Both the position numbers and the translations under genes were made by a program. Shown piece by piece: positions 1 to 60,536 of a DNA stretch of 64,000 nucleotides. Below the pieces are notes generated by a model. The model did no database searches. It was not told the DNA's origin and worked only from the letters and a program-made list of their open reading frames with translations. Source of the stretch: an uncultured bacterium (GTDB lineage: Bacteria; Acidobacteriota; Aminicenantia; Aminicenantales; Saccharicenantaceae). Location: assembly GCA_937920515.1 (NCBI GenBank), contig CALEUG010000015.1, positions 251 to 64,250 of the forward strand, given 5' to 3'. Position 1 is the stretch's first letter. Each line of letters starts with the position of its first letter.

Positions 1-546
1 ATTCACAAAGAAACTAAGATTATTAACGCCAGCTATATGAGCTATCTGGGAAAAAGTATTGAAGGCAAGGATGTTTATATGAAAGGGTTTGGGATGACAA
101 ACGTCCTGCCCGCAGATTTGAAGATAGATTTATCTAAAGAAACAGGTATCACAGTTAGTGTGACCTTTACAGTATTCATTTTAGCGAGAGATGATATTAT
201 GTGGAAGCAAGAAGACGCAATAATTGGTCATAATAACTATGAAAATGTACTCAGGCATGAGCTAACACATGTTTATGACATTCTTCTAATGGTGTCTTTG
301 GCCCTGAACAAAATTGAGGCCCTGTGGAAGGCAGGAAATATTTCTGAGGAGGATGCCAGAAAATTAGTCTATAAAGCCTTCATAAGGGCATCTAAAGCTT
401 CGAGCAGCCTTAGAGATAACTGGGGAGTAGAATGGTTTAAGTGGCTCTCCAATTGGTTTGAAGAACTGAACCCAGAACATAATTATTCAGCTTTTTGGGA
501 ATGGCTGCTAACACCATATATTTATTTTCTTATGAAATGCAATTAA
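1..546 (+). CDS. Partial CDS, open at the window 5' edge. AT-rich C-terminal domain with an HExxH (HELTH) zinc-metallopeptidase-like motif. It may be the polymorphic-toxin C-terminal domain of an upstream Rhs/YD-repeat protein.
   Basis: The frame is open from nt 1 with no stop before the ATG at 37. The translated HELTHVYD motif is present. The low GC contrasts with the GC-rich Rhs-core fragments downstream. Confidence 0.3.
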   Translation: MHKETKIINASYMSYLGKSIEGKDVYMKGFGMTNVLPADLKIDLSKETGITVSVTFTVFILARDDIMWKQEDAIIGHNNYENVLRHELTHVYDILLMVSLALNKIEALWKAGNISEEDARKLVYKAFIRASKASSSLRDNWGVEWFKWLSNWFEELNPEHNYSAFWEWLLTPYIYFLMKCN

Positions 547-550
547 TCCA

Positions 551-1018
551 ATGACTATAAGAATAAAGAAAAAAACGTTCATATTTATAATAGCGTTAGC
601 GTTAGTTATTGGTGCTTTTGCATATATGGGCATATTGGAAATTCTGGATAAAACTCTTGTCAGGAGAGCAGAGTTATTGAAAGTGGGGATGACAGAGAGT
701 GATGTTGTAAATCTTTTGGGAAAACCCCTGGAGTTTGAGCTTATAGACATAAAAGTGGCAGAAGATAGAGGACTGCCCAAGGCTATTTTGAATCGAATTG
801 AAAAATATAACCAGGAAATAAAATGGTGGGCATATTACGTGCCGGGATACCTAGTCAATCCACCGTTTCTTTTCCATCCAGGGCCTTACAGGACAATTGT
901 TGTTGTCTTTATTGATCATAATGGACATGTGGTTCACTCAAGTATTGGTATAACAATTAGAAGAATAAAGCCTTTTGAATTACTAATGAAAGATCTCGAT
1001 GTAAATCGGAATTATTAA
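551..1018 (+). CDS. Hypothetical membrane-anchored protein. Its position fits an immunity protein for the upstream toxin-like domain.
   Basis: 155-aa ORF starting 5 nt after the preceding stop. It has an N-terminal hydrophobic segment (FIFIIALALVIGAFAYMGIL) and is AT-rich. Confidence 0.3.
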   Translation: MTIRIKKKTFIFIIALALVIGAFAYMGILEILDKTLVRRAELLKVGMTESDVVNLLGKPLEFELIDIKVAEDRGLPKAILNRIEKYNQEIKWWAYYVPGYLVNPPFLFHPGPYRTIVVVFIDHNGHVVHSSIGITIRRIKPFELLMKDLDVNRNY

Positions 1019-1119
1019 TAAAGGGTCTAAAAATAGGAAAAAGTTTGCTTTATAATTTTATCTAGGCTGTTTGAGTTCCAAGAATTTTGGAATAGATATT
1101 GTGGATTGATATGATAGCT

Positions 1120-1245
1120 ATGGGGCATGCCTGCGAGAGTATATCTACATAGGGGCGAAGATGGTGGCTGAGTACCAGCCAACTACGGACAAGTATTACT
1201 ACTACACCACCGACCAGATTAACTCCACCCGGGTGGTAGCTTGTC
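1120..1245 (+). repeat. Rhs/YD-repeat core-end fragment, copy 1 (orphan; truncated shortly after the conserved YYYTTDQINSTRVV motif)
   Basis: Translation in one frame gives YIYIGAKMVAEYQPTTDKYYYYTTDQINSTRVVACQL... followed by a stop. This is the RHS repeat-associated core signature (YD repeats, xYYHxDHLGSxRxx-type motif). It is near-identical to 2193-2330. Confidence 0.6.
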
Positions 1246-1454
1246 AGCTGATGACTGGATACGGGTTATCTTTAGATGGGCACCAGAAACCATCGATTGA
1301 TACTGATTGATGTCAAGAAGATACTGAGTATGGGTTATTTATTTACACGATGGTGTTGGCGAAACCTGCCTTGGGGTAAACATCCGTAGGGCAGGGTGTC
1401 ATTTATTTTCCTTATGGTTGGAATTGTTTTTGTAATTTCTGTATAATAAAAATA

Positions 1455-1667
1455 GTGGGAAATAAAATCTGGGTAAAAAAATACCATTCTTTTAAGGACG
1501 CCGAGACAGAAGAGCCTTATTACTATGCTTCCATGACACCAGAGGAAAGATTATCGATAGTGCAGCTTCTGAGGGAAGAGTACTGGAAATTTAAGGGGCC
1601 CAGGGGAAATGAAAGTAGAAAAAGATTATCTCGAGTTTTTAAGGTTGTTAAACAAGCGCAGGGTTAA
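1455..1667 (+). CDS. Small hypothetical protein (70 aa). Its 3' end overlaps the start of the downstream nucleotidyltransferase gene in another frame.
   Basis: The ORF sits between the two Rhs-fragment copies. It overlaps the next ORF by 59 nt, an arrangement typical of coupled two-gene modules. Confidence 0.3.
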   Translation: MGNKIWVKKYHSFKDAETEEPYYYASMTPEERLSIVQLLREEYWKFKGPRGNESRKRLSRVFKVVKQAQG

Positions 1668-2073
1668 ATACTGCATTATCGGTTCTTATGCGGTAGCTTT
1701 TTATGGTCATCCGAGATATACCAAGGATATCGATATTCTTATCGAAAGAGACCTGGCCAACGCCAGGAGATTATTAAAGGCGCTTGTTGAATTCGGGTTC
1801 GGCTCACTCGATTTGAAAGCAGAGGAATTCACCTCGCCAGAGAGCATAATTCAGCTTGGCTATGAGCCCGTGCGTATTGATATTGTAACTTCTATTAGGG
1901 GCGTCAATTTTAAAAAGATATGGGCGAAGCGGCAAAAAGGACGCTATGGTGACATTAAGGTTAACTTTATAGGCCTTCAAGATCTTAAGAGGTTGAAAAG
2001 AAAATTTGGGCGGGTTATTGATAAGTCTGACCTGGAATTTCTGGAGAAGATAGCCAAGGCAAAAAAAGAATAA
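1609..2073 (+). CDS. Nucleotidyltransferase-fold protein (MNT/AbiEii-like minimal NTase)
   Basis: The motif GSYAVAFYGHPRYTKDIDILI matches the G[SG]x9-13DxD polymerase-beta-type nucleotidyltransferase signature. The protein is 154 aa. Confidence 0.5.
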   Translation: MKVEKDYLEFLRLLNKRRVKYCIIGSYAVAFYGHPRYTKDIDILIERDLANARRLLKALVEFGFGSLDLKAEEFTSPESIIQLGYEPVRIDIVTSIRGVNFKKIWAKRQKGRYGDIKVNFIGLQDLKRLKRKFGRVIDKSDLEFLEKIAKAKKE

Positions 2074-2192
2074 TGAGCTTGGATCGGTAATAGTATCAGA
2101 AGAATCAGGTTTAATTTAAAAAAAGACAGGGGACAATGCCAGGAAGGGATGACATAATATTTTCAGACGCTTCTGGCTGAATAAGATGGATA

Positions 2193-2330
2193 TGGGGAAT
2201 GCCTGCGAGAGTATATCTACATAGGGGCGAAGATGGTGGCTGAGTACCAGCCGGACAGGCTTAAATTACAGACGGGCAATTATTACTACTACACCACCGA
2301 CCAGATTGACTCCACCCGGGTGGTTCTGGA
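2193..2330 (+). repeat. Rhs/YD-repeat core-end fragment, copy 2 (orphan, truncated)
   Basis: Translation gives YIYIGAKMVAEYQPDRLKLQTGNYYYYTTDQIDSTRVVLDITTQ followed by a stop. It is about 90% identical at nucleotide level to 1120-1245. Confidence 0.6.
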
Positions 2331-2509
2331 TATAACAACGCAATAGGCTGGCAGGCGCTTTTTATCGCCATCGGTGGCCCGGAGAGATGTACAGGAAGCG
2401 ACCTATATTTTAAGGCAGAATAAATAGGTCAGGTCAAAATAATCGTGATTGACAAATTGCATAAATAAGCATAGTATGTCGATAAATAGTCGACAAACTA
2501 TGCAGAAAT

Positions 2510-3169
2510 ATGAATACGCTTGAGCTCCGGAGCCGCATTCAGACTGAGATATTTGACTACCAGACTCTAACCAGCGCCCTTGGCAGTCTGTCATCTCCCA
2601 GGGATAAGATTACAGAACTGCTGAGGAGTGGGATAATTATAAGGGTTAAGAAGGGGCTTTACGTATTTGGCGAAAAGTATCGTAAGCATGCCTATTCCAG
2701 GGAACTGCTGGCCAACCTCATATATGGCCCATCCTATCTCTCTCTTGATTATGCCCTGGCCTATTACGGACTCATACCGGAAAAGGTTGAAGTCCTGACC
2801 TCGGTTACCCCCAATCGGTCTCGCCGATTTGCCACGCCGGTTGGGCTTTTCACTTATAGGCAGATTCCGCATGGTGCTTACATAAATGGTCTGACCAGGG
2901 TTGAGGCCGATAATAACCAGGCCTATCTTATTGCCATTCCAGAGAAGGCTCTGGCTGATAAGGTTGCTTCCCTGCGCGGGCTCGTATTCAATTCCACCAG
3001 GGAAGTCGCTCGCTTTCTCGAGGAAGATTTGAGGATTGATCTGGAGGCGCTGCGTTCTTTTTCAGTGGCCAAACTTGAAGAATTTGCCGCCGGGTATCGT
3101 TCCCGCAAGCTGAAATACCTGGCCGCCATGGTAAAAAAACTGGCCGCAAACCGGGAGAGAATAAAATGA
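2510..3169 (+). CDS. abiEi: Type IV toxin-antitoxin / abortive-infection AbiEi-family antitoxin (transcriptional regulator)
   Basis: 219 aa. It lies immediately upstream of an AbiEii-like NTase and overlaps it by 4 nt (ATGA). Size and operon position match AbiEi. Confidence 0.65.
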   Translation: MNTLELRSRIQTEIFDYQTLTSALGSLSSPRDKITELLRSGIIIRVKKGLYVFGEKYRKHAYSRELLANLIYGPSYLSLDYALAYYGLIPEKVEVLTSVTPNRSRRFATPVGLFTYRQIPHGAYINGLTRVEADNNQAYLIAIPEKALADKVASLRGLVFNSTREVARFLEEDLRIDLEALRSFSVAKLEEFAAGYRSRKLKYLAAMVKKLAANRERIK

Positions 3170-4032
3170 ATGAAGCCGTCAGGCAAATGCTGGGGGGGTA
3201 TGAAATTAAATCCCCGGCCGATGCGCTCTGGGCCTTGCGCGAAATAATTCAGCAGGTGGCCCTTCTCGGGCTCTGGAGAAGCAAGTTTTTTGAGAGGGCT
3301 GCGTTTTATGGGGGATCGGCCCTGAGGATAATTTATGGGATAGAACGGTTTTCCGAGGACCTGGATTTCTCCCTCCTTGAGGCGGACCCGGCTTTCTCCC
3401 TGACCTATTATGGCCAGGCCCTGAAGAGGGAGCTGCTTTCATTTGGGTTTTCTGTTGAAGTTGAAAGCAGAACAAAAAAGGAGAAAACAACCGTTCAGTC
3501 GGCTTTCCTTAAAACCGATACCCATGAGCAGATGATCTCTGTGGGAATTAAACCTGAACTTTTTAAGCAGATTCCTCGCAACCAGGTGCTAAAAATAAAG
3601 CTCGAGGTCGAGGTGACCCCGCCACCCGGATTCTCAACTGAGATGCGCTATCTTCTAAAACCGATTCCCTTTTCCGTAAGGACCTTTACCCTGCCGGACA
3701 TGTTCGCGGGCAAGATGCACGCGGTTCTCTGCCGTCAATGGAAAAGCCGGCTCAAGGGCCGGGACTGGTATGACCTGGTCTGGTTTAGCGCTCATCACCC
3801 AGAGTTGAGATTATCGCATTTAGAGCAGAGGATGCGCCAGAGCGGTCACTGGAAGGAACCAGATCCCCTGACAGAGCAGACTTTTCGAGAATTGCTGATT
3901 GGCAGAGTAAAATCGGTGGATGTGGAGCAAATCAAGAGTGAGGTTGAGCCCTTCGTTAGCAATCCGGCTGCCCTGGAAGTCTGGTCATGTGAATTTTTTC
4001 TCGATATCGTAAAGCGTATTAAGGTTATCTGA
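3166..4032 (+). CDS. abiEii: AbiEii/AbiGii-family nucleotidyltransferase toxin (DUF1814)
   Basis: The motif FYGGSALRIIYGIERFSEDLDFSL is the hallmark GGTAL...RxSEDxDF of AbiEii. The protein is 288 aa. Confidence 0.8.
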   Translation: MNEAVRQMLGGYEIKSPADALWALREIIQQVALLGLWRSKFFERAAFYGGSALRIIYGIERFSEDLDFSLLEADPAFSLTYYGQALKRELLSFGFSVEVESRTKKEKTTVQSAFLKTDTHEQMISVGIKPELFKQIPRNQVLKIKLEVEVTPPPGFSTEMRYLLKPIPFSVRTFTLPDMFAGKMHAVLCRQWKSRLKGRDWYDLVWFSAHHPELRLSHLEQRMRQSGHWKEPDPLTEQTFRELLIGRVKSVDVEQIKSEVEPFVSNPAALEVWSCEFFLDIVKRIKVI

Positions 4033-4140
4033 TGGTCTTCAGATAATGACATTGAATTCAGCAAGGAATGAGCCAGGCCTTTGATTGGCTATCAGGACTG
4101 CCTGCCCGGGGAAATAACAAGGAAAGGCCACACTTCAGAA

Positions 4141-5405
4141 TCAGAAAAAGTAATAGGCGGCCAAGAGCAGGCGCAGGTTGGTCACAGTTCGCTCGAAACT
4201 GACCCGCCCCCGGGTGTCGCGCGGGCCATAGGCGGCCGAGGTCAGCTCGATTTCCTGGGCTAAGCGAACCTTGCCGGCATTAAAAATAATACGCGGGGCG
4301 AGGCGGAAAAGATAATCGATGGTATCGCCGCGGCTGTAAACTGAGCCGACGATTTCTTTCCTGGCGCCATAATTCTTACTGTACCCGGCGAATATTCCGG
4401 CCTGCCACTTAATTCCGTTGGTCTGCAGCTCGATCCAGGCCGAGCCGGTGTTGACCGGAGTATATGTCCAGTTAAGGGCCGGAGCGCTCCCGATTTCTGA
4501 CACCGCGTAACCGCCGAGCATCGTCAGGTGATGAAGATTCCCGCCGTAAACCAGCTGGGTTTTTATGGTCAGCGGGGTGGTTTTTAGGCGGGCAAAAGCA
4601 TAACCTGCAACCGAGGTGATGGCCTCACCGGCCTTATAGCCGGTGGCTGTGCTCAGGCGCGGCACTATCTGCAGGGAGTTTATTCCTGCCCCCAGCCAGA
4701 AATTCTTATCGGCCCAGGCGGCCTTGAAATTCAATTCGGGAAAGGCGGCGTTGCGGAAATAGACGGTACTGACGCCATCCGGTCCGGTGGAGGCAAAATC
4801 CCGCTGGGAAAGGGCGGTTAAAGAGAAGGACAGCCGTTTTTCTGTCCAGGTGAAGCGCAACTGGGGAGCCCGGGAGAACGGCTCAAAGGGCGCCCCGGTG
4901 TTGAAGGAGACAACTTCCGGGAAGCTTTCGGTTATGAACATCGGGTGCCAGAACTGGCCGATGAGGATTTCGCTTTTCGTCCAGTTCAGCTTGAGGCAGG
5001 CGTGCCTCAACCTGAAGCCGTTAATGTCAGCGTCGGAGTGGCCGAAGAATTCGGCCTCAACATAACCCGTGGGCTTCGCTCCGAGTGCCCTGGGTCCTGT
5101 AATCTTCAGGGCCAGCCTGGTCTGGATGGACAGGATGTGAAAGGTATCCTGGGCATTAAGGTCATTGCCGTTGGGATCCAGGGCCCGGTCCTTGGGATAA
5201 AGCAGAAAATGACCTTCCCTGATGCTCGTGGTCTGGCGGGTGTCGTAAAAGATATCTGTCTTGATAAACCCGCTGAAATTCAGGGTGATTTTATCTTCGT
5301 CCCGGGTCTGGCCGGGCAGACCGGCGGACAATATCAGGAAAACATATAAACCAAGAATTGCCGCAGCGGCTGACCTGACTTTATTGTTTAATTTCCTTTT
5401 ACCCA
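4141..5405 (-). CDS. Outer-membrane beta-barrel protein (porin-like). The likely true start is MGKRKLNN at 5405.
   Basis: It has a signal peptide (AAAAILGLYVFLILSAGLPGQ) and a C-terminal aromatic end (…AAYYFF), with alternating beta-strand-like composition. The ORF track extends upstream of the probable start. Confidence 0.5.
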
Positions 5406-6009
5406 TAGTGCCTGTATTTATAGCAAAATGCATGGGACAAGTCCATGCCGGTTCAGAATGCCAGGGGAATATTCGGGTTAAAAGATATAAAGATAGGCTC
5501 ATCAGACATTTTTGTGGGTAAAAACAGGATTTCTTAAGGCATCGGGTGAGGTCTTAAGCTAAAACAGACAGCCAAGAACCCGGCTCGTCAATTATACGAT
5601 TAACAAAGCAATAAAGAAGGCCCGGGTTGGATTGCCTCCGAGAAGCGCTCAGTGCCGGCAGCTTTATCTGGACTGTGAGAATAACAATTATCCGGGTTCG
5701 CCCATTAAAATCCCGGAAGCCCCTAAAGATAAAGTACTTGGCAATCAGATTAAAACGCGAGCTATAAAATAAAGAAATTACGAGGGTAGACCCGGTGTTT
5801 ATATTTTCGTTATTAACAACACCCGTGGCTCTCATTCCGCACAGAACTTGCCCGGTCAGCCGGCGCACCTTAAAAGGATGATTTTTTTTGAGGATTGGAA
5901 TGGTAATTTTATCCCGGCTCCGGAATTCGTTTAAGCTTGCATCCCCGCCGTGAAAAGAGGCCGGAAGCGCGTCACAATCTTCTGAGGGTTTTTCTGATAT
6001 TTATTCTGC

Positions 6010-8697
6010 TCAGAGTGCTTTCTGGATTTCCACCAGGGTTGATTGCGGGTCCTGGCGAATTTCAAAATCGCGCTTCTTGAAGACCGCAATCATCCTGGGA
6101 TTATCAGTGGTGGTGTAGGCGATGATTTTTTTCACTCCCCAGGCCCTGGCTATTTCAGTGCAGTAATCGGTCAGTATCCCGCCCAGCCCTTTATTCTGCC
6201 AGTCGTCCTGGACCAGGACCGCATACTCGGCCACCGTCCGCGTCGGGTCGGCCGTCAGGCGGCCGACACCCAGGATTCGGCGCTTGTTCCCGTCCTGGAG
6301 CTCGGCCACGATGGCCATCTCCCGGTCGTAATCGATGTAGCAATAACGGGAGGCCACTTCGTGCGATTGCCAGAAGAAGAAATAGCGGAAGCGCGAATAG
6401 ATTGTTTCCCTGGAGCAGCTGCCGAGAAGCTCAAACCAGAGCGGCTCGTCTTCGGGCCGGATGGGCCGCAGGGTGATTTCGGTGCCGTCGCGCATCCTGG
6501 CCTTCCTGATGAACTCTTCCGGGTAAGGCCGCAGCACCAGGTGCTCGTAGGGCTGTACCTTTTCCGGCGCCACTGCCCGGTCGGCGATTATCCGGGCATC
6601 CAGGGCCACGACCTCTTCCGGGCTGACCAGCAGCGGGTTGATGTCTATCTCTTTGATTTCCGGGTAATCGGCCACCAGGTAAGAAAACCTGATGATGATT
6701 TCGATCAGCCGGTCGATGTTGACCGGAGGTTTCCCGCGATAACCCTTGAGCAGAGGCCAGCTCTTGAGCTGTTCCAGTGCCCTTCTGGCCAGGCGCTCGT
6801 TAAGCGGGGGGAAGCAGATGGACCGGTCCTTGAGCACCTCAGCCGCCGTCCCGCCCAGCCCGACCATGATCACCGCGCCGAAGGTAGGGTCCTTCTTGCT
6901 GCCGATGATCATCTCCAGGGCGTCCCGGGCTTTGACCATCTTCTGGACGACCACGCCCTCAATCCGGGCTTCCGGCCTCCTTTCTTTTACATTTTGCATC
7001 ATCCGGTCGTAGGCTGCTTCCACCATGTGGTCGTCTTCAAGGTCCAGGACGACACCGCCGACGTCTGACTTATGGGTGATATCGGGCGAGTGAATCTTCA
7101 GGACCACCGGGTAACCGATCTCCCGGCTGAGCCTGACCGCTTCTTCCCTGGTTCTGGCCAGGCGGGGCAAAGTGGTGGGAATGCCGTAGGCATCGATAAT
7201 CTTCTTGGAGGTTTCTTCGCTCAGAAATTCAGGCCCGTCGGTCAGCCAGGGTAGAACCTTCTGCCGTATCTTTTCTCTTTCAACTGGAAATTCCACCGAA
7301 ATCTCCCGCGGCGTTTCGTAGAGGTTTTCCAGGTTGCGGGCATAGTTTACCAGGATCATGAAAGCCCGCACCGCCTGCTCGGGCGTTCTGTAGGTCGGGA
7401 TGCCGGCTTCGTTCAGGAGGCGGTTGGCCTCGCTCATGCTGGGTCCACCGAGAAAAGCGGCCAGGACGGGTTTTGTGGATTCGGCGGCTATGGGCAGGAG
7501 TTCCTTGGCGATTCCCGGGGGATTGGTCATGGCCTGGGGAGTTATGATAAGCAGCACGGCATCGACGCCCTCATCCTGCAGGGCGGCCCTGACGGCCTTG
7601 GCCACGGTCTTGCTTTTGGCATCTCCCAGGACGTCGACCGGGTTGCCGTGAGACCAGGCCGGGGGCAGGTTCTGGTTTAAGAATTCAATGGTCTGCGGGC
7701 TGAGCTCGGCCAGCCGGCCGCCGGCTTCAATCAGGGCATCGGAGGCCATGACCCCGGGTCCCCCGGCGTTGGTAACTATGGCCAGCCGCGGGCCCTTCGG
7801 TATCCTGTGACGGCCGATGAGCTCGGCCACGTCAAACATTTCGCCGATTTCAAACACCCTGGCCAGGCCGGCCCGCTGAAAAGCGGCTTCATAGATGGCG
7901 TCTTCTGCGGCCATGGCCCCGGTATGAGATGAAGCGGCTTCGGCCGATTCCGGGAAACGGCCGGCTTTGTAGGCGATTATGGGCTTGGTCCGGGCGTAGG
8001 CTCGGGCTGCCGACATGAAGCGCCTGGGGCTGGAGATGGATTCTATGTACATCAGGATCGACCGGGTGTTTTCGTCCTCGCCAAAGTAATCAATGAGGTC
8101 GCCAAAATCTATGTCCAGGGCGTTGCCGATGGAGACGAAATAGGAAAAGCCGATTTTCTCTTCCAGTGACCAGTCAAGGATAGAGGTGCAGAGGGCCCCC
8201 GACTGGGAGATAAAAGCTATGTGCCCGTTAAGCGGCATGTCAGCCGCAAAGCTGGCGTTGAGGTTGAGCCCGGGCGAGATAACTCCCAGACAGTTGGGTC
8301 CCAGTATGCGCATCCCCGGGAATTTTTTCTTTTCGGCCAGGATCTGTTCTTCCAATGCCCGGCCCTCGGGCCCGGTTTCCCGGAAGCCGGCCGAGATGAT
8401 GATTATGCCCATGATTCCAGCCTGGCCGCACTCAGCCACAATTTTTGGCACCTGAGGGGCGGGAGTGCAGATTACCGCCAGGTCCGGGGTGCGGGGCAGG
8501 CTGGCCACGCCGGTAAAACAGGGGATGCCCATGACGGCTTCCACCGCGGGGTTCACCGGGTAGACCACGCCACGGTAGCCGCCGGTAATAAGGTTGGACA
8601 GGATCTTGCCGCCGACGCTTTTGGGGTTAGGGGTAACGCCAACCAGTGCGATTCGCTGCGGTTTGAATATCTTATCCAGGGTTTCCAGTTCTTCCAT
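6010..8697 (-). CDS. pat: Pat/YfiQ-type protein lysine acetyltransferase: an ADP-forming acyl-CoA-synthetase-like N-terminal region fused to a C-terminal GNAT domain
   Basis: 895 aa. It carries the N-terminal CoA-binding motif (RIALVGVTPNPKSVGGKIL…PVNP), a succinyl-CoA-synthetase-like/ATP-grasp middle region and a C-terminal GNAT (…AVLVQDDWQNKGLGG…). Confidence 0.75.
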   Translation of the reverse strand: MEELETLDKIFKPQRIALVGVTPNPKSVGGKILSNLITGGYRGVVYPVNPAVEAVMGIPCFTGVASLPRTPDLAVICTPAPQVPKIVAECGQAGIMGIIIISAGFRETGPEGRALEEQILAEKKKFPGMRILGPNCLGVISPGLNLNASFAADMPLNGHIAFISQSGALCTSILDWSLEEKIGFSYFVSIGNALDIDFGDLIDYFGEDENTRSILMYIESISSPRRFMSAARAYARTKPIIAYKAGRFPESAEAASSHTGAMAAEDAIYEAAFQRAGLARVFEIGEMFDVAELIGRHRIPKGPRLAIVTNAGGPGVMASDALIEAGGRLAELSPQTIEFLNQNLPPAWSHGNPVDVLGDAKSKTVAKAVRAALQDEGVDAVLLIITPQAMTNPPGIAKELLPIAAESTKPVLAAFLGGPSMSEANRLLNEAGIPTYRTPEQAVRAFMILVNYARNLENLYETPREISVEFPVEREKIRQKVLPWLTDGPEFLSEETSKKIIDAYGIPTTLPRLARTREEAVRLSREIGYPVVLKIHSPDITHKSDVGGVVLDLEDDHMVEAAYDRMMQNVKERRPEARIEGVVVQKMVKARDALEMIIGSKKDPTFGAVIMVGLGGTAAEVLKDRSICFPPLNERLARRALEQLKSWPLLKGYRGKPPVNIDRLIEIIIRFSYLVADYPEIKEIDINPLLVSPEEVVALDARIIADRAVAPEKVQPYEHLVLRPYPEEFIRKARMRDGTEITLRPIRPEDEPLWFELLGSCSRETIYSRFRYFFFWQSHEVASRYCYIDYDREMAIVAELQDGNKRRILGVGRLTADPTRTVAEYAVLVQDDWQNKGLGGILTDYCTEIARAWGVKKIIAYTTTDNPRMIAVFKKRDFEIRQDPQSTLVEIQKAL

Positions 8698-8780
8698 CTC
8701 GGGGCTCCGGAATTATTCGCTTTGCTTTAAGATTAAAATTCCCTTTGGGGCTGCTCCGGGCAGGAGACCGTAAAGGGCAA

Positions 8781-10733
8781 TCACAATTTTAATTTAAATC
8801 CGGTGGAAATTGTAGTGCCCGGCGAACCGTAGCCGTAAACGAGCTCATAGCGGCTGTTTAACAGGTTCTGGACATGGAGGAAAAGGGCAAGCGACTGCTT
8901 GAGGTCATAGCTCAGGAGCAAACTGGCTATGTTTGCCGCTTTGAGCTTTACGGTCCGGGGCGGATAGGAAGAATAATCGACATCCAGCCGGGAACCGATA
9001 TGGTTGAGCTCGGCCGTTAGAGTTATTGATTTATGCGACAGGTTAAAGCGGACGTAGAAGCTTTGCTCCGGCCGGCGAAGAAGCGGGCTTTCCAAAACCA
9101 GGTCCCGGGCCTTGAGGTGAGTCCAGCCCGTGCTGATGTTCCCGTTCTTAAACGGCCTGGCTTCCAGTGAAGCTTCCAGGCCGCGGCTTAGAGCCCGGCC
9201 GACATTCTGGTAGCCAGAGCCGAAATAAAACTGGATTAAGTTCCGAAAGCGGGTTTCAAAATAGGTCAGCGATATGGCCAGCCTGTCGCCAAATTCCTTC
9301 TCTATCCCCGCATCCCAGCCGAGGTTTCTTTCCGGATGCAGGTCCGGGTTACCGATTGGCCCGAAATAATCAGCCGGGGCGAAAAGCTGGTAGAGGGAAG
9401 GGGCTTTAAAGCCGCTGCCGAGCGTGCTTTTCAGCCTGGCCCCGATTTCAGGCAGGTCCAGGCAGGCTGCCGCCCTGAAGGTCAGGGCCTGGCCGAAGCG
9501 CCGGTGATGGTCGGAGCGAAGACCTGCGGTCAACGACAGCCTTTCCCAGGGTTTCCACTGGTCCTGTAAGTAGAGGCCGAGCAGAGAGGCGGTTTTTTGC
9601 GGAAAGCTGCTTTCGTAGTCACCCCACGGGCTGAAATACAGGTAAGAAGAGCTGCCGTATTCCTGGCGATAGTCGGCCCCGAGAACGAGGGTGTGGTTCG
9701 CAGCCAGGAAAAAATTGTTCTGCCAGTCAATCTTAAAAAGCCGGCTGCTGTACAGGGCCCGCTCGCCTTCGCCCGGGTGAACTTCGTCGGCCGGGTTGTC
9801 GTTCTCCCGGCGGCCGGCTTCCAGGCCGAAGACCAGTTTTGGCTGCCAGCGGTGCTGGAAGAGAAAGGCGTCAAGCTCCAGGCGGTTAAAAATAAAGCGA
9901 GATTTCTGGAGAGAATTGGGGTCGTCTCCATAAGGCCCGCCGAAGGCGTCAAGCTCGGCCCGGCCGATGAGCCCGCGGGTCTGCCAGTTGAGGCGAAAGG
10001 ATGGCGAGAGCCGGTAGCTCAACTTCAGGGCCAGGCTCTGCTGGCTGTAGCCGTCAGCCTCGCTGTTTCCTGGATAGCGGCTGTCGGCCTGGGAAATACC
10101 GGCCGTGGCGAAGGTGTTGAATTCGGCCAGCAAGGAGAAATCTCTGAAGACCCGGGCCACCTTGAAATTTCCCTGCCCGGTCCGAAAAGTTCCGAAAAGC
10201 CCGGAAAGGCTGACCTCATTCTTTTCGGGGTCGGCCGTTATCAGGTTTACCACCCCGGCCAGGGCATCAGAGCCGTAAAGGGTGCTCTGGGGGCCGCGCA
10301 GAACTTCCACCCGGTCAACCAGGGCCAGGTTGAACAGGTTAAAATTAAAAGAGCGGGAAGGTGAGACGGGGTCGTTGAGCTCTAAGCCGTCAACCATGAA
10401 GACCGCATGTTCTGAATTGGCGCCACGGATGAAAAGAGAGCCAGACCCGCCGGCCAGGCCGGTTTGAATGAAAAAGAGTCCGGGGATACCTGCCAGTAGA
10501 ATTTCTGGCCTGACAGTCGCCCCCGGCGGTAGCTTTTCGGTTCGGACCAGGCTTATGGCCGAGGCCGTTTCCCTGACCGGGGTTTCCAGTCGGGTGGCCG
10601 TCACCACTATCTCGTGTTGAATTTTTGGCGGCTGGTTCTGGTCATTTAGCAGCGCGCTGGCCGGGCGCTCACCAAAAAGAAACAGGCAAAGAAAGCACAG
10701 GGTTGAAAGTTGGGCAGAAAGGTTTCTTTTCAT
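8781..10733 (-). CDS. btuB: TonB-dependent outer-membrane receptor, probably the cobalamin receptor (BtuB-like)
   Basis: A signal peptide, a TonB box/plug (VVTATRLETPVRETASAISLV) and a 650-aa beta-barrel are present. A cobalamin riboswitch lies in its 5' UTR. Confidence 0.8.
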   Translation of the reverse strand: MKRNLSAQLSTLCFLCLFLFGERPASALLNDQNQPPKIQHEIVVTATRLETPVRETASAISLVRTEKLPPGATVRPEILLAGIPGLFFIQTGLAGGSGSLFIRGANSEHAVFMVDGLELNDPVSPSRSFNFNLFNLALVDRVEVLRGPQSTLYGSDALAGVVNLITADPEKNEVSLSGLFGTFRTGQGNFKVARVFRDFSLLAEFNTFATAGISQADSRYPGNSEADGYSQQSLALKLSYRLSPSFRLNWQTRGLIGRAELDAFGGPYGDDPNSLQKSRFIFNRLELDAFLFQHRWQPKLVFGLEAGRRENDNPADEVHPGEGERALYSSRLFKIDWQNNFFLAANHTLVLGADYRQEYGSSSYLYFSPWGDYESSFPQKTASLLGLYLQDQWKPWERLSLTAGLRSDHHRRFGQALTFRAAACLDLPEIGARLKSTLGSGFKAPSLYQLFAPADYFGPIGNPDLHPERNLGWDAGIEKEFGDRLAISLTYFETRFRNLIQFYFGSGYQNVGRALSRGLEASLEARPFKNGNISTGWTHLKARDLVLESPLLRRPEQSFYVRFNLSHKSITLTAELNHIGSRLDVDYSSYPPRTVKLKAANIASLLLSYDLKQSLALFLHVQNLLNSRYELVYGYGSPGTTISTGFKLKL

Positions 10734-10789
10734 TCATTTTCCTTTCCCCCCGCTTGAAAAAGCTTCTGAGCCGCTCCTCTTTTCTTCCG

Positions 10790-10960
10790 CCCGAAGAAAA
10801 CAGGGGCTGCCGGGTTGAAGGCAGGTATCCTGACTCCCGGGTCTTCCTCCTCCCTAACCTTCCCACCCGCAGGGGCAGTGGCTTTTTGAGGGATTCGTCG
10901 CCGGTTACAGTAGCGGGGGCTGTGTCCGCCTCTCACGGACTTCCCTGCTTCTTAAACCCT
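10790..10960 (-). ncRNA. Cobalamin (AdoCbl) riboswitch in the 5' leader of the TonB-dependent receptor gene
   Basis: The minus-strand RNA reads GGGAAGUCCGUGAGAGGCGGAC…CCCGCUACUGUAACCGG…GCCACUGCCCCUGCGGGUGGGAAGG…GUCAGGAUACCUGCC. This contains the B12-box GCCACUG, the GGGAAG…GGUGNNA…CCCGC core and the CAGGAUACCUGCC 3' element. Confidence 0.75.
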
Positions 10961-11036
10961 GAAACATAATTTATCAAATTTGAGCGCCCTGTCAATTCTG
11001 GCAGAAAAATTGTGGGTCATGAGGTCCGGGGTGATT

Positions 11037-12231
11037 TTACTGAATCTTTCTCGTCCTGCCGGCAAATATCTCCGGATAATTCTTTACCTTGATCCTTTTT
11101 ATCACCGGCCAACCTTCCTGGTCTTCTGAAATGAAATATATGAACCCATTGCTTATCAGCTTCGGCTTTGCCGGGAACTTAACGGATAGCAAATAGTTGC
11201 CCTCTTCACTATAAATGTCTGCTTCATATACTTTCTGTTTGCGCTCTTTTCGAGATATGGTTACTACGTATAACCTGTTCGATTCATCTAAAAGCAATGC
11301 ATTGAAAAGAGGTGCAGGATTTCCACGATTAACACCATTTCTTGTCCGTTGACTGGATGTCTCTAAGTTCGCGCCTCTCGAAATAGGGGGACCATTAATT
11401 GTTCTGACCAGATTCCCGGAATAATCGTAAAAATTGATAACATATTGCAAGTTGTGAGCTATCCACACGCCGTTTCTGGAAGGACAGATGATAAAAGACG
11501 GGAGGTTTTCGGGGTTAATAACACCTCCAACCACCCCCCCCTTCTTTACTGAACCTCAAGGTCCAGAGGCCGTGATCCTTGGGTCCCTGAAGGATATATT
11601 TTATTCTTCCCTGTCTATCTAACGCGGAGATTTGTCCAATTTTACCTGATTCTGTACTTAATTAGGTCACACCTATTATTCCATCATCATTGTTGGCGGC
11701 GAAATTGCTGGCCAGAAATGCTTCCAATGGAAATTGAGTTAAGAATTCACCATCCTTTGAATATATTATTATTTTTCTTCCTTGGTCGTTGATTAATATC
11801 TTGTCTTTTGTCAACTGCATTCCAAGTATCATTGTAAACTCGCCTGGCCCCTGACCGGTTGATCCAATTTCTCTGATTAAATTGCCATTGGCGTCCCATT
11901 CGGTAATTTTATCCTGTTCCAGCGCATAATATTTACCCCATTCGCTGAGAAAAAAATCCCGGATGGTTTTGGTTCCTGATTGCGACGCGTTTATAAAAAT
12001 CTCTTCATTACCGTCAAATAATAATTCTAAATCTGCAGGCCGTATGAATTGTCGTAACTTAAAAAAACCAATTCCTATAAGAACAGCAACCAAAACGACC
12101 GCAAAAGATAATGCTTGCCTTCCCCGCATCTTGAATCTTATTTCAGGTGGAGCAATCTCAAAGCAGAATATCTTATACCATTGGAGGCACAACCTCGCAG
12201 TATGAACCCCACCAGGCTCCGCCGTACTCAC
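11037..12231 (-). pseudogene. Disrupted 6-bladed beta-propeller (NHL-repeat / BF3164-like) membrane-anchored protein. It is split by an in-frame TAA at 11662-11664 and by a frameshift at a G8/C8 homopolymer (11534-11541).
   Basis: The upstream part (11662-12231) has an N-terminal TM segment and NHL-like GSTGQGPGEF motifs. The reading frame stays open past the TAA until the poly-G tract, where the downstream ORF (11037-11534) continues in another frame with the same repeat flavour. Confidence 0.45.
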
Positions 12232-12451
12232 AGAAAATGCCTCTTATCGGTCCTCCCGAATAATACCTGTAATAACCACAGACCTCATGCCCGCCGCAAT
12301 TTCCGAAAGTTTCGCAGAAAAGCAAGGTCCCGTCTCCGCATATAAAATTAAGGCCGCAGCTTAAGGCAGGCCGGCTGACCGTAAGAAAAAAGCCTGCAAT
12401 GAGAGAGATGGCGATAAGAATTAAAGTTGCCAATCGCTTAAAGTTTAACAT
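12173..12451 (-). CDS. Small peptide (92 aa) with a signal-peptide-like N-terminus and 7 cysteines
   Basis: The N-terminal hydrophobic segment is MLNFKRLATLILIAISLIAGFFLTV. The mature region has 7 Cys and many Gly/aromatic residues (…CGLNFICGDGTLLFCETFGNCGGHEVCGYYRYY…). It lies between two beta-propeller lipoprotein genes. Confidence 0.4.
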   Translation of the reverse strand: MLNFKRLATLILIAISLIAGFFLTVSRPALSCGLNFICGDGTLLFCETFGNCGGHEVCGYYRYYSGGPIRGIFCEYGGAWWGSYCEVVPPMV

Positions 12452-12475
12452 GTTAAACCCCCTTAAAAAATTTAT

Positions 12476-13570
12476 TCATATATCAGCCTCAAAAATTAAC
12501 GGCTGCCTGTTTTCTGGGTTAGTAGCCAGGCCAAACATTCTTCCGACAGGCAAGATAACAAAGCAATCTATGTAAGAGGTAATATCTTGGTCATTAAGAA
12601 TTATCTTAAGCGTTCCGAGGAAATCGGCCTTAAGGTTGAATAATAGAAATTTCTCATAACCAAGGTAGTAGATAGTCCCTTTATAGATTCCAATCCCTCT
12701 GTTCATTCTGACCAACCGAATCTCATTTGGTTTATTCTGTTTTTCAGGCGTGTCAGCCATAATTTCTTTCTGGCGGTCCAGGGCGCGATTAATTTCAGGT
12801 ATATCTGATAGAGCGAGATCTCTTTTGAATATCTCCCTTCCGGTTATCCGATCAAAGGCAAATACTATCGGCAGGCAGGTATAAGCGCCATAGATAACTC
12901 GATCGTCACCAGACAGCTCAACCAGGTTAAAATGCAGATGGGCTATGGATGAGGAACATCTTATGGCTTTTCCGAAAGAACGGATTTGAGTGAAATCATA
13001 ATCAAATATGGAAATAATAGGTTCCTCGTTCATCTCAGCGATAGACCGGGTAACCTTTTTTGCCGGCACAATCAATTGATTTTCCTGACCAATAATGAGA
13101 GCGGGAAGGAAATAGTTTCCTTTTTTTGATATCACTTTTATAAAGGAGCCAAAGCGATTGAATATTTTTATCTCTGCACCAGAGTTGTTTATAACGGCCA
13201 ATATCTTATCGTTGGCGGTAACAACCACGGGGTAATACAGATCTGTTTCTCTCTGACCTATACCTCCAATTATTCTTTTAAGTTTTCCCACCCTATCAAT
13301 TTCCAGGATCCTGTGCCTTTTAGAATCGATCAGATATGCTGTAAGATCTTCAGTCATATGGAAGAGCTTTGTCTGAAAAAATGTCCTGGCAATTTCGAAT
13401 TCCGTCTCAAGCTTCTGCAAATCCAAAAATGTTCTGGCTGTGATTACCTTTTCGGATGAATTCCGATCAGCTGACAAGGGATTTTTCTGGTGGCAGGAAA
13501 TAATAGCACAGAATAATAATATGAAAGGCGCAGCTGCCTTAAAAAAGGCCGATGTTCTGCGTATTATCAT
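12476..13570 (-). CDS. 6-bladed beta-propeller lipoprotein (NHL/TolB-like, BF3164-like family)
   Basis: It has a lipoprotein signal (…FILLFCAIISC). The 364-aa repeat-rich body resembles 11037-12231. It is AT-rich. Confidence 0.5.
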   Translation of the reverse strand: MIIRRTSAFFKAAAPFILLFCAIISCHQKNPLSADRNSSEKVITARTFLDLQKLETEFEIARTFFQTKLFHMTEDLTAYLIDSKRHRILEIDRVGKLKRIIGGIGQRETDLYYPVVVTANDKILAVINNSGAEIKIFNRFGSFIKVISKKGNYFLPALIIGQENQLIVPAKKVTRSIAEMNEEPIISIFDYDFTQIRSFGKAIRCSSSIAHLHFNLVELSGDDRVIYGAYTCLPIVFAFDRITGREIFKRDLALSDIPEINRALDRQKEIMADTPEKQNKPNEIRLVRMNRGIGIYKGTIYYLGYEKFLLFNLKADFLGTLKIILNDQDITSYIDCFVILPVGRMFGLATNPENRQPLIFEADI

Positions 13571-14277: not shown

Positions 14278-14753
14278 GGAAAGGAGGGGATTAAGAGAAG
14301 GAGGCTTTAAGGTTTAACCTCTGGTCAAGCCTTAAAATTCCTCTTATTCTCATCTTTGCTCACTTAGATTAACATTCTGGCTGGGGATTTGGTTGCGCGG
14401 TGTAATCCGGAAAGTTTTTTGATTAAGACAGGGGTTAAAATTAAAGATATAAACGCGAAATAAAAAGAGTCTATTTTTCTCTGATTTTCGACTTTTCCCC
14501 TTACTGACAACATAACTATTTTACCATAACAATAATTTTTTTGCAAGAAATTTTTTACAGTTTTTAAAATTTTGCTGAAATTTCTTGTCCGTCGCTGTTA
14601 TAAGGGGAAAAAAGAGGCTCCGGATGCAAATTTTCGGGCTGAAGACTTTAATTTTGCGCCCTTCCGGGGTTAAAATAGCCATGTCTGGCGGAATAAACGC
14701 CTGATAGCGGCTGAAAAACTCAGGCAAACGTCGGTTTTGCGGGAGAAAGGCCC

Positions 14754-16169
14754 ATGAATAAGGAAAATTTCAGAAAATATGGCTATCAACTCGTAGACTG
14801 GGTGGCCGATTACCTGGAAAACGCCGAAAAGTACCCGGTCATGTCTGTGGTTCAACCGGGAGAAATCAAGGCCAGGCTGCCGGTTTCGCCCCCGGCCCAC
14901 GCCGAGGAAATGGACCGGATACTGGAAGATTTTAACAGCATTATCATGCCCGGTATTACCCACTGGCAGCATCCTGGCTGGTTTGCCTACTTTCCGGCCA
15001 ATAACAGCCCGGCCTCCATACTGGGGGAGCTGCTGGCCGCTGGACTGGGAACTCAGGGCATGGTCTGGCAGACTTCTCCGGCTGCCACCGAGCTGGAAGA
15101 AGTGGTCATGGACTGGCTGCGCCAGATGATAGGGTTGCCCGAGGGCTATGCCGGCGTCATCCAGGATACCGCCTCCACGGCTACCCTGTGCGCCCTGCTG
15201 GCTGCCCGGGAAAAAATCTCCGGTTTCAGGATAAATTACGAAGGCTTCGAAGGAGCCCTCCGGGTTTATGCCTCCCGGGAAGCGCATTCCAGCGTTGACA
15301 AGGGGGTTAAAATTGCCGGCTTTGGCAAAAAGAATCTGGTTCATATTCCGGTTGATGATGAATTTGCCCTGATTCCCGGCGAACTGGAGCGGGCCATTGA
15401 GAACGACCTTAAGGCCGGGCTTAAACCGGCCTGCGTGGTGGCCACCGTCGGCACCACCTCTTCCGGGGCGGTTGACCCTCTGAAACCCATCGGAGAAATC
15501 TGCCGCAGGTACGGCCTCTGGCTGCACGTCGATGCCGCCTATGCCGGAACGGCGGCCATTCTGCCCGAGAAGCGCTGGGTCCTGGAAGGCGCCGGGCTGG
15601 CCGATTCGCTGGTCTTTAACCCGCACAAGTGGATGCTGACCAACTTTGACTGCTCGGCCTTCTTTGTTAAGGAGCCGGAGGTCCTGACCCGCACCTTTGA
15701 AATTCATCCGGAATATCTCAAGACCGGCGTCGATGCCGTGGTCAAGAATTACCGAGACTGGGGAATTCAACTCGGGCGCCGGTTCCGGGCCCTGAAGCTG
15801 TGGTTTGTGCTGCGGAGCTACGGGGTGGAGGGGATCAAGAAAATAATCCGCCGCCATATTCACCTGGCCGAGCTCTTCCGCGATGAACTGCAGCAGGACC
15901 GGCGGTTTGAAATCCTGGCCCCGGTTTACTTCAGCCTGGTCTGCTTCAGGTTGAACGACGGGCGGCCGGAAGCCGGGCTTAACGAACTCAACCGGAAGCT
16001 GCTGGAAGCGGTTAACTCAACCGGCAGGCTATTCATGACCCATACCACGCTCAACGGAAAATATACTCTGCGGCTGGTGGTCGGGCAGAGAACAACCGAG
16101 GAAAGACACGTCCGCCTGGCCCTGGAGATAATAAAGCAGAAGGCCGGGGAGCTGCTTCTGTCTTCTTGA
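14754..16169 (+). CDS. PLP-dependent aromatic-L-amino-acid decarboxylase (group II decarboxylase; tyrosine/DOPA/tryptophan decarboxylase family)
   Basis: 471 aa. It has the PLP-lysine motif NPHKWMLTNFDCSAFF and the WQHPGWFAYFP/HVDAAYAG signatures of group II decarboxylases. Confidence 0.8.
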   Translation: MNKENFRKYGYQLVDWVADYLENAEKYPVMSVVQPGEIKARLPVSPPAHAEEMDRILEDFNSIIMPGITHWQHPGWFAYFPANNSPASILGELLAAGLGTQGMVWQTSPAATELEEVVMDWLRQMIGLPEGYAGVIQDTASTATLCALLAAREKISGFRINYEGFEGALRVYASREAHSSVDKGVKIAGFGKKNLVHIPVDDEFALIPGELERAIENDLKAGLKPACVVATVGTTSSGAVDPLKPIGEICRRYGLWLHVDAAYAGTAAILPEKRWVLEGAGLADSLVFNPHKWMLTNFDCSAFFVKEPEVLTRTFEIHPEYLKTGVDAVVKNYRDWGIQLGRRFRALKLWFVLRSYGVEGIKKIIRRHIHLAELFRDELQQDRRFEILAPVYFSLVCFRLNDGRPEAGLNELNRKLLEAVNSTGRLFMTHTTLNGKYTLRLVVGQRTTEERHVRLALEIIKQKAGELLLSS

Positions 16170-59855: not shown

Positions 59856-59930
59856 CGGGGAGTGGCGCAGCCTGGTTAGCGCGCCTGCCTTGGGAGCAGG
59901 AGGTCGTCGGTTCAAATCCGATCTCCCCGA
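59856..59930 (+). tRNA. tRNA-Pro (anticodon UGG)
   Basis: A manual cloverleaf was built: 7-bp acceptor CGGGGAG/CUCCCCG, anticodon loop CUUGGGA and T-loop UUCAAAU. CCA is not encoded. Confidence 0.8.
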
Positions 59931-59952
59931 TTTTCTGATAGGTAGAAGCCGT

Positions 59953-60026
59953 GCGCCTGTAGCTCAGCAGGATAGAGCAGCTGCCTTCTAAGCAGCGGGT
60001 CGGGGGTTCGAATCCCTCCAGGCGCG
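59953..60026 (+). tRNA. tRNA-Arg (anticodon UCU)
   Basis: A manual cloverleaf was built: acceptor GCGCCUG/CAGGCGC, anticodon loop CUUCUAA and T-loop UUCGAAU. Confidence 0.8.
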
Positions 60027-60536
60027 TTTTTTATTTTCCCCTGTTTGTTGTTTACAGTTATTCCAGTCATCCCGGGATAAGGTTGACTCCGGCCGCAAAC
60101 TTCTTTTAAGTTAGATATTTCAATCTTACCGGTTCTTTCTGGTTCTGTGGATAATACAGGAAAATGAAAGCAAAACCTGATCCAATCGATTGTCCTGTTA
60201 GTCAGTTCGGGAAACCTTCCTCTGCAGGAGTTTTTTGCCTTCCGCTCCCGGGCAGCCAGAATGGAAAGCAGTTAAATAAGGCCTGGCGTTTGACGGGCCG
60301 GGAATGACCTGGTTTTTATCTGAAACTTTGTTAAGCGGGCGCCAGGCAAGAAATGCCTGCCTGTTATGCCCGGGGATGGCCAGGACCTCAGAACAGCCTT
60401 CCTGAAGTTGAGAGAAACGGGAAGGCCGCTAAATCAAACGATAACATCAAAAAAAGAGAAACAGCTGGACCTGACAGGTTAACGAAAAGGCTGGTGTTTA
60501 ATTATTTCAAAAGGCTTGCCCAGGCATAAGGAAGTA

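Follow-up and report, generated by a model that had tools for sequence, protein, structure and literature searches.

Export of Rhs toxins is limited to cassettes fused to the full-length shell gene, and orphan cassettes represent a silent reservoir with immunity genes that may still be protective. Cassettes are swapped or deleted by homologous recombination via the conserved head and core. Among Enterobacteria, Salmonella Typhimurium carries the orphan (rhs-CT / rhsI) cassettes STM0291/STM0292 downstream of rhs-main, and a shared stretch of 522 bp at 95% identity is the recombination substrate for toxin swap or deletion (Koskiniemi et al. 2014, PMC3967940). Here, we analyzed 64,000 nucleotides (nt) of DNA from an uncultured bacterium (positions 251 to 64,250 of contig CALEUG010000015.1, assembly GCA_937920515.1; hereafter, the window), in which the original prediction had placed a degenerate Rhs orphan array at the left end. 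We consider it very probable that positions 1-2400 are the downstream end of an Rhs orphan toxin cassette array in a Candidatus Saccharicenans-like genome, where two repeated fragments, head A and head B, are cassette stubs without toxins. The comparison was made with relatives that are Candidatus Saccharicenans contigs at 87-94% nt identity, namely L002, L003, L004, and L006 (the L003 contig extended upstream). The array features, including the open reading frames (ORFs), are as follows:

1-546, + strand: 3' part of a cassette ORF with the C-terminal toxin domain, HELTH at nt 256-270 (based on the extension by contig L001 and on the ortholog P0001)
551-1018, + strand: putative immunity gene, with an N-terminal transmembrane (TM) helix and a BamE-like domain (based on its position after the toxin, a weak BamE match, and its paralogs)
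1099-1237, + strand: head A, a truncated cassette head consisting of the last YD repeat, whose left flank corresponds by orthology to an intact DUF5675 cassette head of the relatives
2166-2324, + strand: head B, the truncated, conserved head that ends the array, collinear with L003 into abiE (frame 2185-2346)

The repeat search and MAFFT alignment showed two blocks shared by the heads in direct orientation: one of 82 nt (1099-1180 versus 2171-2252, 90% identity) and one of 53 nt (1185-1237 versus 2272-2324, 94% identity), with a brief variable segment between them that includes a 15-nt (5-codon) indel. An exact 41-mer (1140-1180 and 2212-2252) and an exact 27-mer (1194-1220 and 2281-2307) are common to both copies; each occurs twice in the window, with 0.00 occurrences expected from 100 dinucleotide shuffles. 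The repeats of about 90% identity previously placed at 1120-1245 and 2193-2330 are, then, real, with left edges about 20 nt off. Frame A (1110-1310) reads YDSYGACLREYIYIGAKMVAEYQPTTDKYYYYTTDQINSTRVV, then 23 unrelated codons and TGA (1308-1310); frame B (2185-2346) reads DGYGECLREYIYIGAKMVAEYQPDRLKLQTGNYYYYTTDQIDSTRVV, then 6 codons and TAG, in agreement with the early stops already described after each fragment. Directly 5' of each frame lies an in-frame stop (TGA at 1107-1109 for A and TAA at 2182-2184 for B), and it is a TAT>TAA change at 2182-2184 that closes the upstream extension of head B. The independent Logan assembly ERR9287621 covers the region with three contigs (window −77 to 1148, 1208 to 2228, and 2295 to 13169, at 100%, 100%, and 99.9% identity), the ends of which fall only within the exact repeat blocks. 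Because these contigs reproduce the junctions and break only in exact repeats, the junctions are real and not an assembly artefact. The repeat search found no inverted repeats flanking the heads, and Rfam gave no match within window 1-2400.

Taken alone, fragments A and B had no Pfam or NCBIfam match at threshold, and TIGR03696 (Rhs_assc_core) had no match in them even at E<1; RHS_repeat, too, gave no match to either fragment. What they encode emerges from the intact cassettes of the relatives. The array ORFs in L002, L003, and L004 (about 300 aa) start with MVAEYQP..YYYYTTDQINSTRVVTDDEGNVVYSAVHDPYGG..., continue with the Rhs core, and end with differing toxin domains (DUF5715, DUF5675, DUF6765-like, and HExxH), followed by small ORFs. 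The order in intact cassettes is ...YIYIGAKMVAEYQP..YYYYTTDQINSTRVVTDDEGNVV...DPYGG..., with TIGR03696 beginning at residue 40-44, about 14 residues past ...STRVV. An intact cassette is composed of a head of about 140 nt (the last YD repeat), about 260 nt of core (TIGR03696), a variable C-terminal toxin, and at least one immunity gene.

Heads A and B align over their full length to the heads of at least seven intact TIGR03696 cassettes at 79-93% nt identity (two of these copies over a shorter stretch), and at 79-84% to the full-length rhs gene of L095, a different locus of the clade, where the same head lies just N-terminal to the core at residues 1847-1929 of a 2120-aa protein. Of the last YD repeat, the fragments keep about 45 codons, and these lie about 110-155 residues ahead of the core's end. 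Since TIGR03696 starts about 14 residues after ...STRVV in intact cassettes, what they encode is the YD repeat upstream of the RHS core and not, as had been proposed, its canonical end. In A, B, and the terminal fragment of L003, the homology ends after the same ...CCCGGGTGGT, which for A and B is about 14 codons short of the TIGR03696 start. We found no core remnant 3' of either break, where similarity to core DNA is at the level of shuffled sequence. The string RFLSP at 2356-2370 was considered as a second core remnant and rejected, the post-break DNA scoring no better than shuffled sequence. No variable toxin and immunity gene are attached to the two fragments; a small-ORF/nucleotidyltransferase (NTase) pair and abiEi/abiEii stand there instead. 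As judged from these alignments, A and B are the 5' edge (the "head") of a homology block of about 400 nt common to the cassettes, and the whole core, toxin, and immunity gene are missing. The earlier view of the repeats as orphan cassette pieces deprived of their toxins was well founded in this respect.

The ORF at 1-546 had been described as open at the window edge, AT-rich, and carrying HELTH, and it is so: its GC content is 36-40%, and HELTH occupies codons 86-90. Logan contig L001 adds 77 nt upstream of the window, in which the translation reads ...NRLNKYFFANNNPISYFEFSGLW followed by AIIHKETK. These 77 nt contain the Rhs core end, ...NNNPISYFEFSGLW before AIIHKETK, which is a variant of the core end (cleavage-site) motif and has the toxin domain directly after it. 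The ortholog P0001 (Candidatus Saccharicenans, 273 aa), annotated by NCBI as an RHS repeat-associated core domain-containing protein, is 92% identical to ORF 1-546. It matches TIGR03696 (E 2.5e-15) at model positions 20-76 only, and thus its core is 5'-truncated. The HExxH toxin family is rare: among 1.84 billion representative proteins, seven matched at E<=1e-3 (P0001 and P0066-P0071), several of them fused to Rhs cores, and HExxHxxD is conserved in most of the family. The AlphaFold2 (AF2) model of the toxin domain (mean predicted confidence, pLDDT, 81) presents a five-strand sheet, then long helices, and places HELTH at the beginning of helix 80-110. Foldseek against the PDB retrieved no fold relatives, and the one Pfam match was a weak one to Peptidase_M76 (E 0.15). 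On the basis of the motif and its place in the model, a metallopeptidase-like activity of the domain is plausible.

The ORF at 551-1018 starts 4 nt after the toxin stop. Its BamE match is weak (E 0.008), and the N-terminal hydrophobic helix expected of a small membrane protein was confirmed. L003 has two further HExxH toxin cassettes, and behind each of them lies a TM and BamE-like paralog of 551-1018 (25% identity, same architecture). With three paralogous toxin/immunity pairs that co-vary, 551-1018 behaves, in this comparison, as the cognate immunity gene of 1-546; the former would be protective and the latter toxic. The original prediction of a C-terminal toxin and immunity gene following an Rhs core agrees with the L001 extension, with the TIGR03696 match of P0001, and with the co-variation of the paralogs.

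The synteny with the relatives shows what was replaced. By blastn, window 1-1237 corresponds to L003 10277-11514 (94%), with the homology ending at 1237; window 2166-5448 corresponds to L003 14868-18128 (87%), collinear into abiE; and window 6014-8678 corresponds to L003 18158-20822 (90%). The positional counterpart of head A in the relatives is the head of an intact 304-aa DUF5675 cassette. That of head B is their terminal truncated fragment (L003 14602-15021; ...YYYYTTDQINS, then the frame is lost), which lies directly 5' of abiEi/abiEii, a porin-like gene, and an 895-aa acetyl-CoA synthetase-type gene. The 0.93 kb at window 1238-2165 has no counterpart in L002-L004 and stands in place of 3.35 kb of L003 (11515-14867) encoding two DUF5675 cassettes and three immunity-like ORFs. 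The slots left by lost orphan toxins had been described as occupied by the NTase pair and by abiEi/abiEii: the former does sit where the relatives carry toxin cassettes, whereas the latter forms, with fragment B, the conserved array terminus of all relatives (in L092, the abiE genes are deleted).

The array contains at least nine cassettes in L003/L006. GC content is 35-44% in the array and NTase pair, about 50% in abiE, and 55-63% in the flanking housekeeping genes. A sharp compositional island boundary separates window 1-2400 from 4200-9900. In L092 (7882-8514) and L093 (GCA_014360005.1; Logan SRR25293830), the same flanking genes enclose a collapsed locus: aminotransferase and porin-like gene are separated by one lone head (an 88-aa ORF, truncated later, after DPYGG), with no cassettes and no abiE. 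From abiE, only the promoter/operator region (window 2450-2502) survives in L092, at 83%; the genes are lost. Overall, the idea that this region is the downstream part of an Rhs polymorphic toxin/immunity array was borne out.

The heads themselves are mosaic. In the first 62-nt block, A agrees with B at 61/62 positions and with its positional ortholog at 55/62. In the second block, of 53 nt, A agrees with the ortholog at 52/53, B with the ortholog at 42/53, and B with other heads at 51/53. The left boundaries of the heads vary between cassettes, which therefore points to homology-driven or illegitimate events and not to a site-specific, integron-like mechanism. Furthermore, a 410-nt direct repeat brackets the L003 array (920-1328 and 14603-15012), one copy belonging to a 588-aa long-head ORF, the other to the truncated fragment that ends the array; at 97% identity, the two are far more alike than ordinary heads are among themselves (82-93%). 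No recombinase Pfam family is on record in the arrays of L002-L006. The marks of an insertion sequence (IS), a miniature inverted-repeat transposable element (MITE), or an integron cassette site, i.e., a transposase or integrase, terminal inverted repeats, and fixed boundaries, were not found. Together, the mosaics, the breakpoints, the L003 repeat, and the L092/L093 collapse show, at the level of comparative sequence analysis, an array that expands, homogenises, and collapses via its repeated heads.

The proposed series of events is the following. The window opens inside one intact cassette, formed by the HExxH toxin (1-546) and the immunity gene (551-1018). Head A starts the next cassette, the core, toxin, and immunity gene of which have been replaced by 0.93 kb with the small-ORF/NTase pair, probably through RecA-type recombination between heads. 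Head B is the conserved terminal head, truncated at the same nucleotide as A and abutting abiEi/abiEii. The heads may be regarded as recombination scars without a demonstrated function of their own, and A and B, lacking core and toxin, would be dead ends for toxin switching. The exact 41- and 27-nt blocks would keep them as substrates of homologous recombination, and such events could exchange the NTase pair or cut it out. Such head stubs are an ordinary by-product of cassette recombination and not a new kind of element. More speculatively, the toxin-antitoxin (TA) modules may be bona fide array cassettes that stabilise the array.

The features that follow heads A and B, all of them on the same strand, are listed below:

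1238-1454, + strand: unique spacer, without counterpart in L002-L004, with a promoter-like site (TTGGAA-18-TATAAT) at 1418-1447 ahead of the small ORF (promoter scan)
1455-1667, + strand: small ORF, 70 aa, antitoxin-like partner of the NTase (position conserved in 79/80 metagenome loci)
1609-2073, + strand: minimal NTase, DUF2204, distantly AbiEii-like, putative toxin (Pfam DUF2204 5e-6 and AbiEii 3e-5; PADLOC AbiEii 5e-5)
2325-2509, + strand: conserved spacer, abiE promoter/operator-like region with TTGACA-17-TAGTAT at 2449-2477 (86% to L003 15022-15196; promoter scan)
2510-3169, + strand: abiEi, type IV TA antitoxin/regulator (PADLOC AbiEi 8.7e-68; NCBIfam TAA_AbiEi 6.9e-11)
3166-4032, + strand: abiEii, NTase toxin (PADLOC 7.1e-107; Pfam AbiEii 9.9e-32)

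Both the overlapping small-ORF/NTase pair (1455-2073) and abiEi/abiEii (2510-4032) had been recognised in the original prediction, correctly. The small ORF lies directly upstream of the NTase gene in 79 of the 80 metagenome loci retrieved (L010-L089), overlapping it in the loci inspected, and the NTase has at least 219 relatives in metagenomes. The pair is widespread in sediment and subsurface metagenomes. It has the appearance of a TA family, so far uncharacterised and with a distant relationship to AbiE, and we infer that it works as a toxin-antitoxin system. Rhs heads stand beside it in 1/80 loci only, the closest one, L010 (NTase 80% aa identity), where window 1403-2057 corresponds to 5104-5762 at 72% nt identity. 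There, the pair is flanked by truncated heads, with head and spacer repeated together (141 nt at 86% plus 54 nt at 74%) with a period of about 1011 nt. Because the NTase modules are 72% identical while the flanks are at 87-94%, the head-NTase pair-head layout is older than the split between the window and L003. The heads were also considered as a shared promoter source; this was dropped, as promoter-like sites lie near the two heads at non-equivalent positions.

Several points weigh against the interpretation of the region as an orphan array end with stubs left by recombination. Pfam, PADLOC, and the PDB gave no match for the HExxH domain, the toxin activity of which is only predicted. The heads in L010 end at other truncation points (about +22 and +33 nt), and the breakpoint shared by A and B could reflect an ancestral duplication and not a recent crossover. 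The replacement may have run in either direction, with the NTase pair or the DUF5675 cassettes coming in. Moreover, the orphan-only character of the array is deduced from synteny, the relatives being at 87-94% identity, and the genome's own upstream DNA is known for 77 nt.

Among the alternatives, the one that survives best, although unlikely, is that the head-TA-head units are selected mobile cassettes, which are excised as a circle by recombination between two heads and re-integrated at any head, with the NTase pair and AbiE stabilising the silent array. Two successive units (1099-2073 and 2166-4032) do share the series of truncated head, promoter spacer, small antitoxin-like gene, and NTase-fold toxin; the independent contig L010 has the same head-NTase pair-head layout; and the common 3' truncation point of A and B is what a Campbell-type integration of a one-head circle would give. 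However, just 1/80 NTase-pair loci carry Rhs heads, L010 and the window do not have the same truncation points, abiE and the entire array disappeared from L092 with no visible consequence, and no circle or excision product was observed. Integron arrays are stabilised by TA modules, and the stabilisation invoked here is an analogy with them. A related and more doubtful idea is that the truncated heads are portable homology handles, which let NTase-type TA modules enter, duplicate in, and leave arrays, the TA modules in turn stabilising an orphan-only array. It is compatible with the data because the window contains two consecutive head-spacer-antitoxin-NTase units and the second lineage, L010, has the same layout.

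A further alternative, improbable in our view, goes back to the original prediction: ORF 1-546 would be the C-terminus of the locus's own multi-kb YD-repeat rhs gene, with A and B as orphan slots directly downstream. The clade does possess such a gene. At the other locus, L095 415-6777 (GCA_014360015.1, JACIYJ010000010.1), a 2120-aa full-length Rhs with the same head precedes an orphan array with a truncated head at its end; it has a signal peptide, DUF6531, RHS_repeat (5e-23), YD_repeat_2x (1.5e-13), and TIGR03696. It is also true that the window's own upstream DNA was seen for 77 nt only. Against this alternative, the orthologs of the ORF ending at 546 in three relatives measure 273-289 aa, have a 5'-truncated core (TIGR03696 from model position 20), and are seventh or later in an orphan array. 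In L003, 94% collinear with the window (10277-11514), the longest possible ORF at this position is 289 aa and is preceded by an unrelated 188-aa membrane ORF. The arrays of L006 and L002 begin right after a block comprising uvrA, mntP, acpS, an AMP-binding enzyme, a small ORF, and an aminotransferase gene. Their first member is a 315-aa orphan in L006, and in L002 a head at about 4760-4915 followed by a called 155-aa DUF5715 ORF; no multi-kb rhs was found at this locus in these two syntenic relatives. Apart from heads A and B, the 64-kb window also contains no YD-repeat or core sequence. Judged from synteny, the ORF that ends at 546 appears to be an orphan with a 5'-truncated core and not the C-terminus of a multi-kb gene. 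In short, the large main gene that had been expected exists in the clade, with the same head, but not, by synteny, at this locus, and the short ORFs of the relatives contradict the idea of a multi-kb gene that would end at 546.

The L095 protein deserves a separate description. Choice-of-anchor-D / HYDIN-like immunoglobulin (Ig) domains (about residues 1130-1340) and about 450 further residues are inserted before its last two YD repeats and core, i.e., between these and the main YD-repeat region, a site unusual for an Rhs shell. The precomputed Pfam record of this protein listed no family. When the 588-aa ORF of L003 was searched for homologs, all the proteins retrieved were <=583 aa long, and the first gene of L091 encodes <=664 aa. 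A shell-less "mini-Rhs" family was considered and rejected, since the L003 ORF aligns to residues 1513-1941 of the L095 Rhs (44.5% identity, E 2e-108); the short Rhs proteins are, by this alignment, 5'-truncated "long-head" copies. The protein word-index search seems biased to lengths similar to that of the query, and the 2120-aa Rhs was found via genomic context; likewise, the homolog search with head plus core gave only proteins of <=241 aa and is uninformative on long proteins. The AF2 model of P0012 (583 aa), aimed at the region upstream of the head, had a pLDDT of 38 and gave no identification. In the metagenome contig L090 (2982-4194), P0012, itself a long-head Rhs copy, has a split Transposase_mut (IS256-family) gene directly after it; IS elements thus occur in such arrays.

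Lastly, that the repeats are unrelated to Rhs (an IS, a MITE, or another family) or are an assembly artefact can be dismissed as a practically negligible possibility: neither fragment alone reaches a Pfam/NCBIfam threshold, but both align over the whole length to at least seven intact cassette heads (79-93%) and to full-length rhs (79-84%), there are two copies only in 64 kb, no inverted repeats flank them, and an independent assembly reproduces the junctions. The match to an unrelated repeat or IS family that had been named among the findings that would refute the Rhs assignment did not appear, and the repeats align to Rhs heads.

Elsewhere in the window, a cobalamin riboswitch (RF00174, 10803-10976, − strand, 107.5 bits, E 1e-26) lies directly upstream of a TonB-dependent receptor ORF (8781-10733, − strand); the two look like an ordinary B12-regulated uptake gene. 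Adjacent tRNA-Pro(TGG) and tRNA-Arg(TCT) genes (59856-60027, + strand) are distant from the array and apparently unrelated to it.

The reading that we prefer, a decaying end of an Rhs orphan array, allows five states of the locus to be put side by side: the full array (L003/L006), the shorter one (L002), the NTase-substituted tail of the window, the L010 variant, and the collapsed lone head (L092). This unusually clear series could record how such arrays grow, decay, and acquire unrelated TA and defence genes. The comparison also flags a rare HExxH toxin family without structural relatives. In the literature searched, we found no paper mentioning both Aminicenantes and Rhs.

With respect to AbiE, a type IV TA and abortive infection system that pairs a wHTH antitoxin (AbiEi) with a DUF1814 NTase (AbiEii), 2510-4032 matches both profiles strongly and has the usual 4-nt gene overlap, and the genes are ordinary. 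What distinguishes them is position only: they come directly after the truncated head that ends the array, a position kept in three relatives; a fourth has lost the genes. As for the full-length YD-shell proteins of the Rhs, TccC, and teneurin type (PDB 8h8a, 6h6e, 4o9x, 5kis, and others), the cassette core matches the C-terminal end of the shell with profile E values of 1e-12 to 1e-10. Unlike them, the window holds no shell, and the full-length Rhs of the clade has the inserted choice-of-anchor-D/HYDIN-like Ig domains. The maf genomic islands of Neisseria reportedly contain orphan arrays of MafB-CT with immunity genes, each with a short conserved 5' piece, and some islands are said to lack a full-length toxin gene. 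They are similar to our locus in layout, being arrays of alternative toxin C-termini, and different in scaffold, which is MafB and not Rhs; we know of no TA modules between their cassettes.

The closest counterpart remains the Rhs orphans of Enterobacteria. In both cases, a 5'-truncated conserved rhs piece is joined to a variable toxin and an immunity gene, the shared stretch being here about 400 nt at 82-97%. Unlike the enterobacterial orphans, the present array belongs to the candidate phylum Aminicenantota, is long (at least nine cassettes in L003/L006), and has no rhs-main at the locus in the relatives; its copies A and B are without core, toxin, and immunity gene, and TA modules lie between and after them. 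The orphan-only locus, the toxin-less heads, and the embedded NTase-type TA modules are minor peculiarities. The locus is explained by known biology and leaves the current understanding of Rhs systems unchanged, while extending the known main/orphan architecture and its recombination-driven turnover to an uncultured phylum, Aminicenantota.

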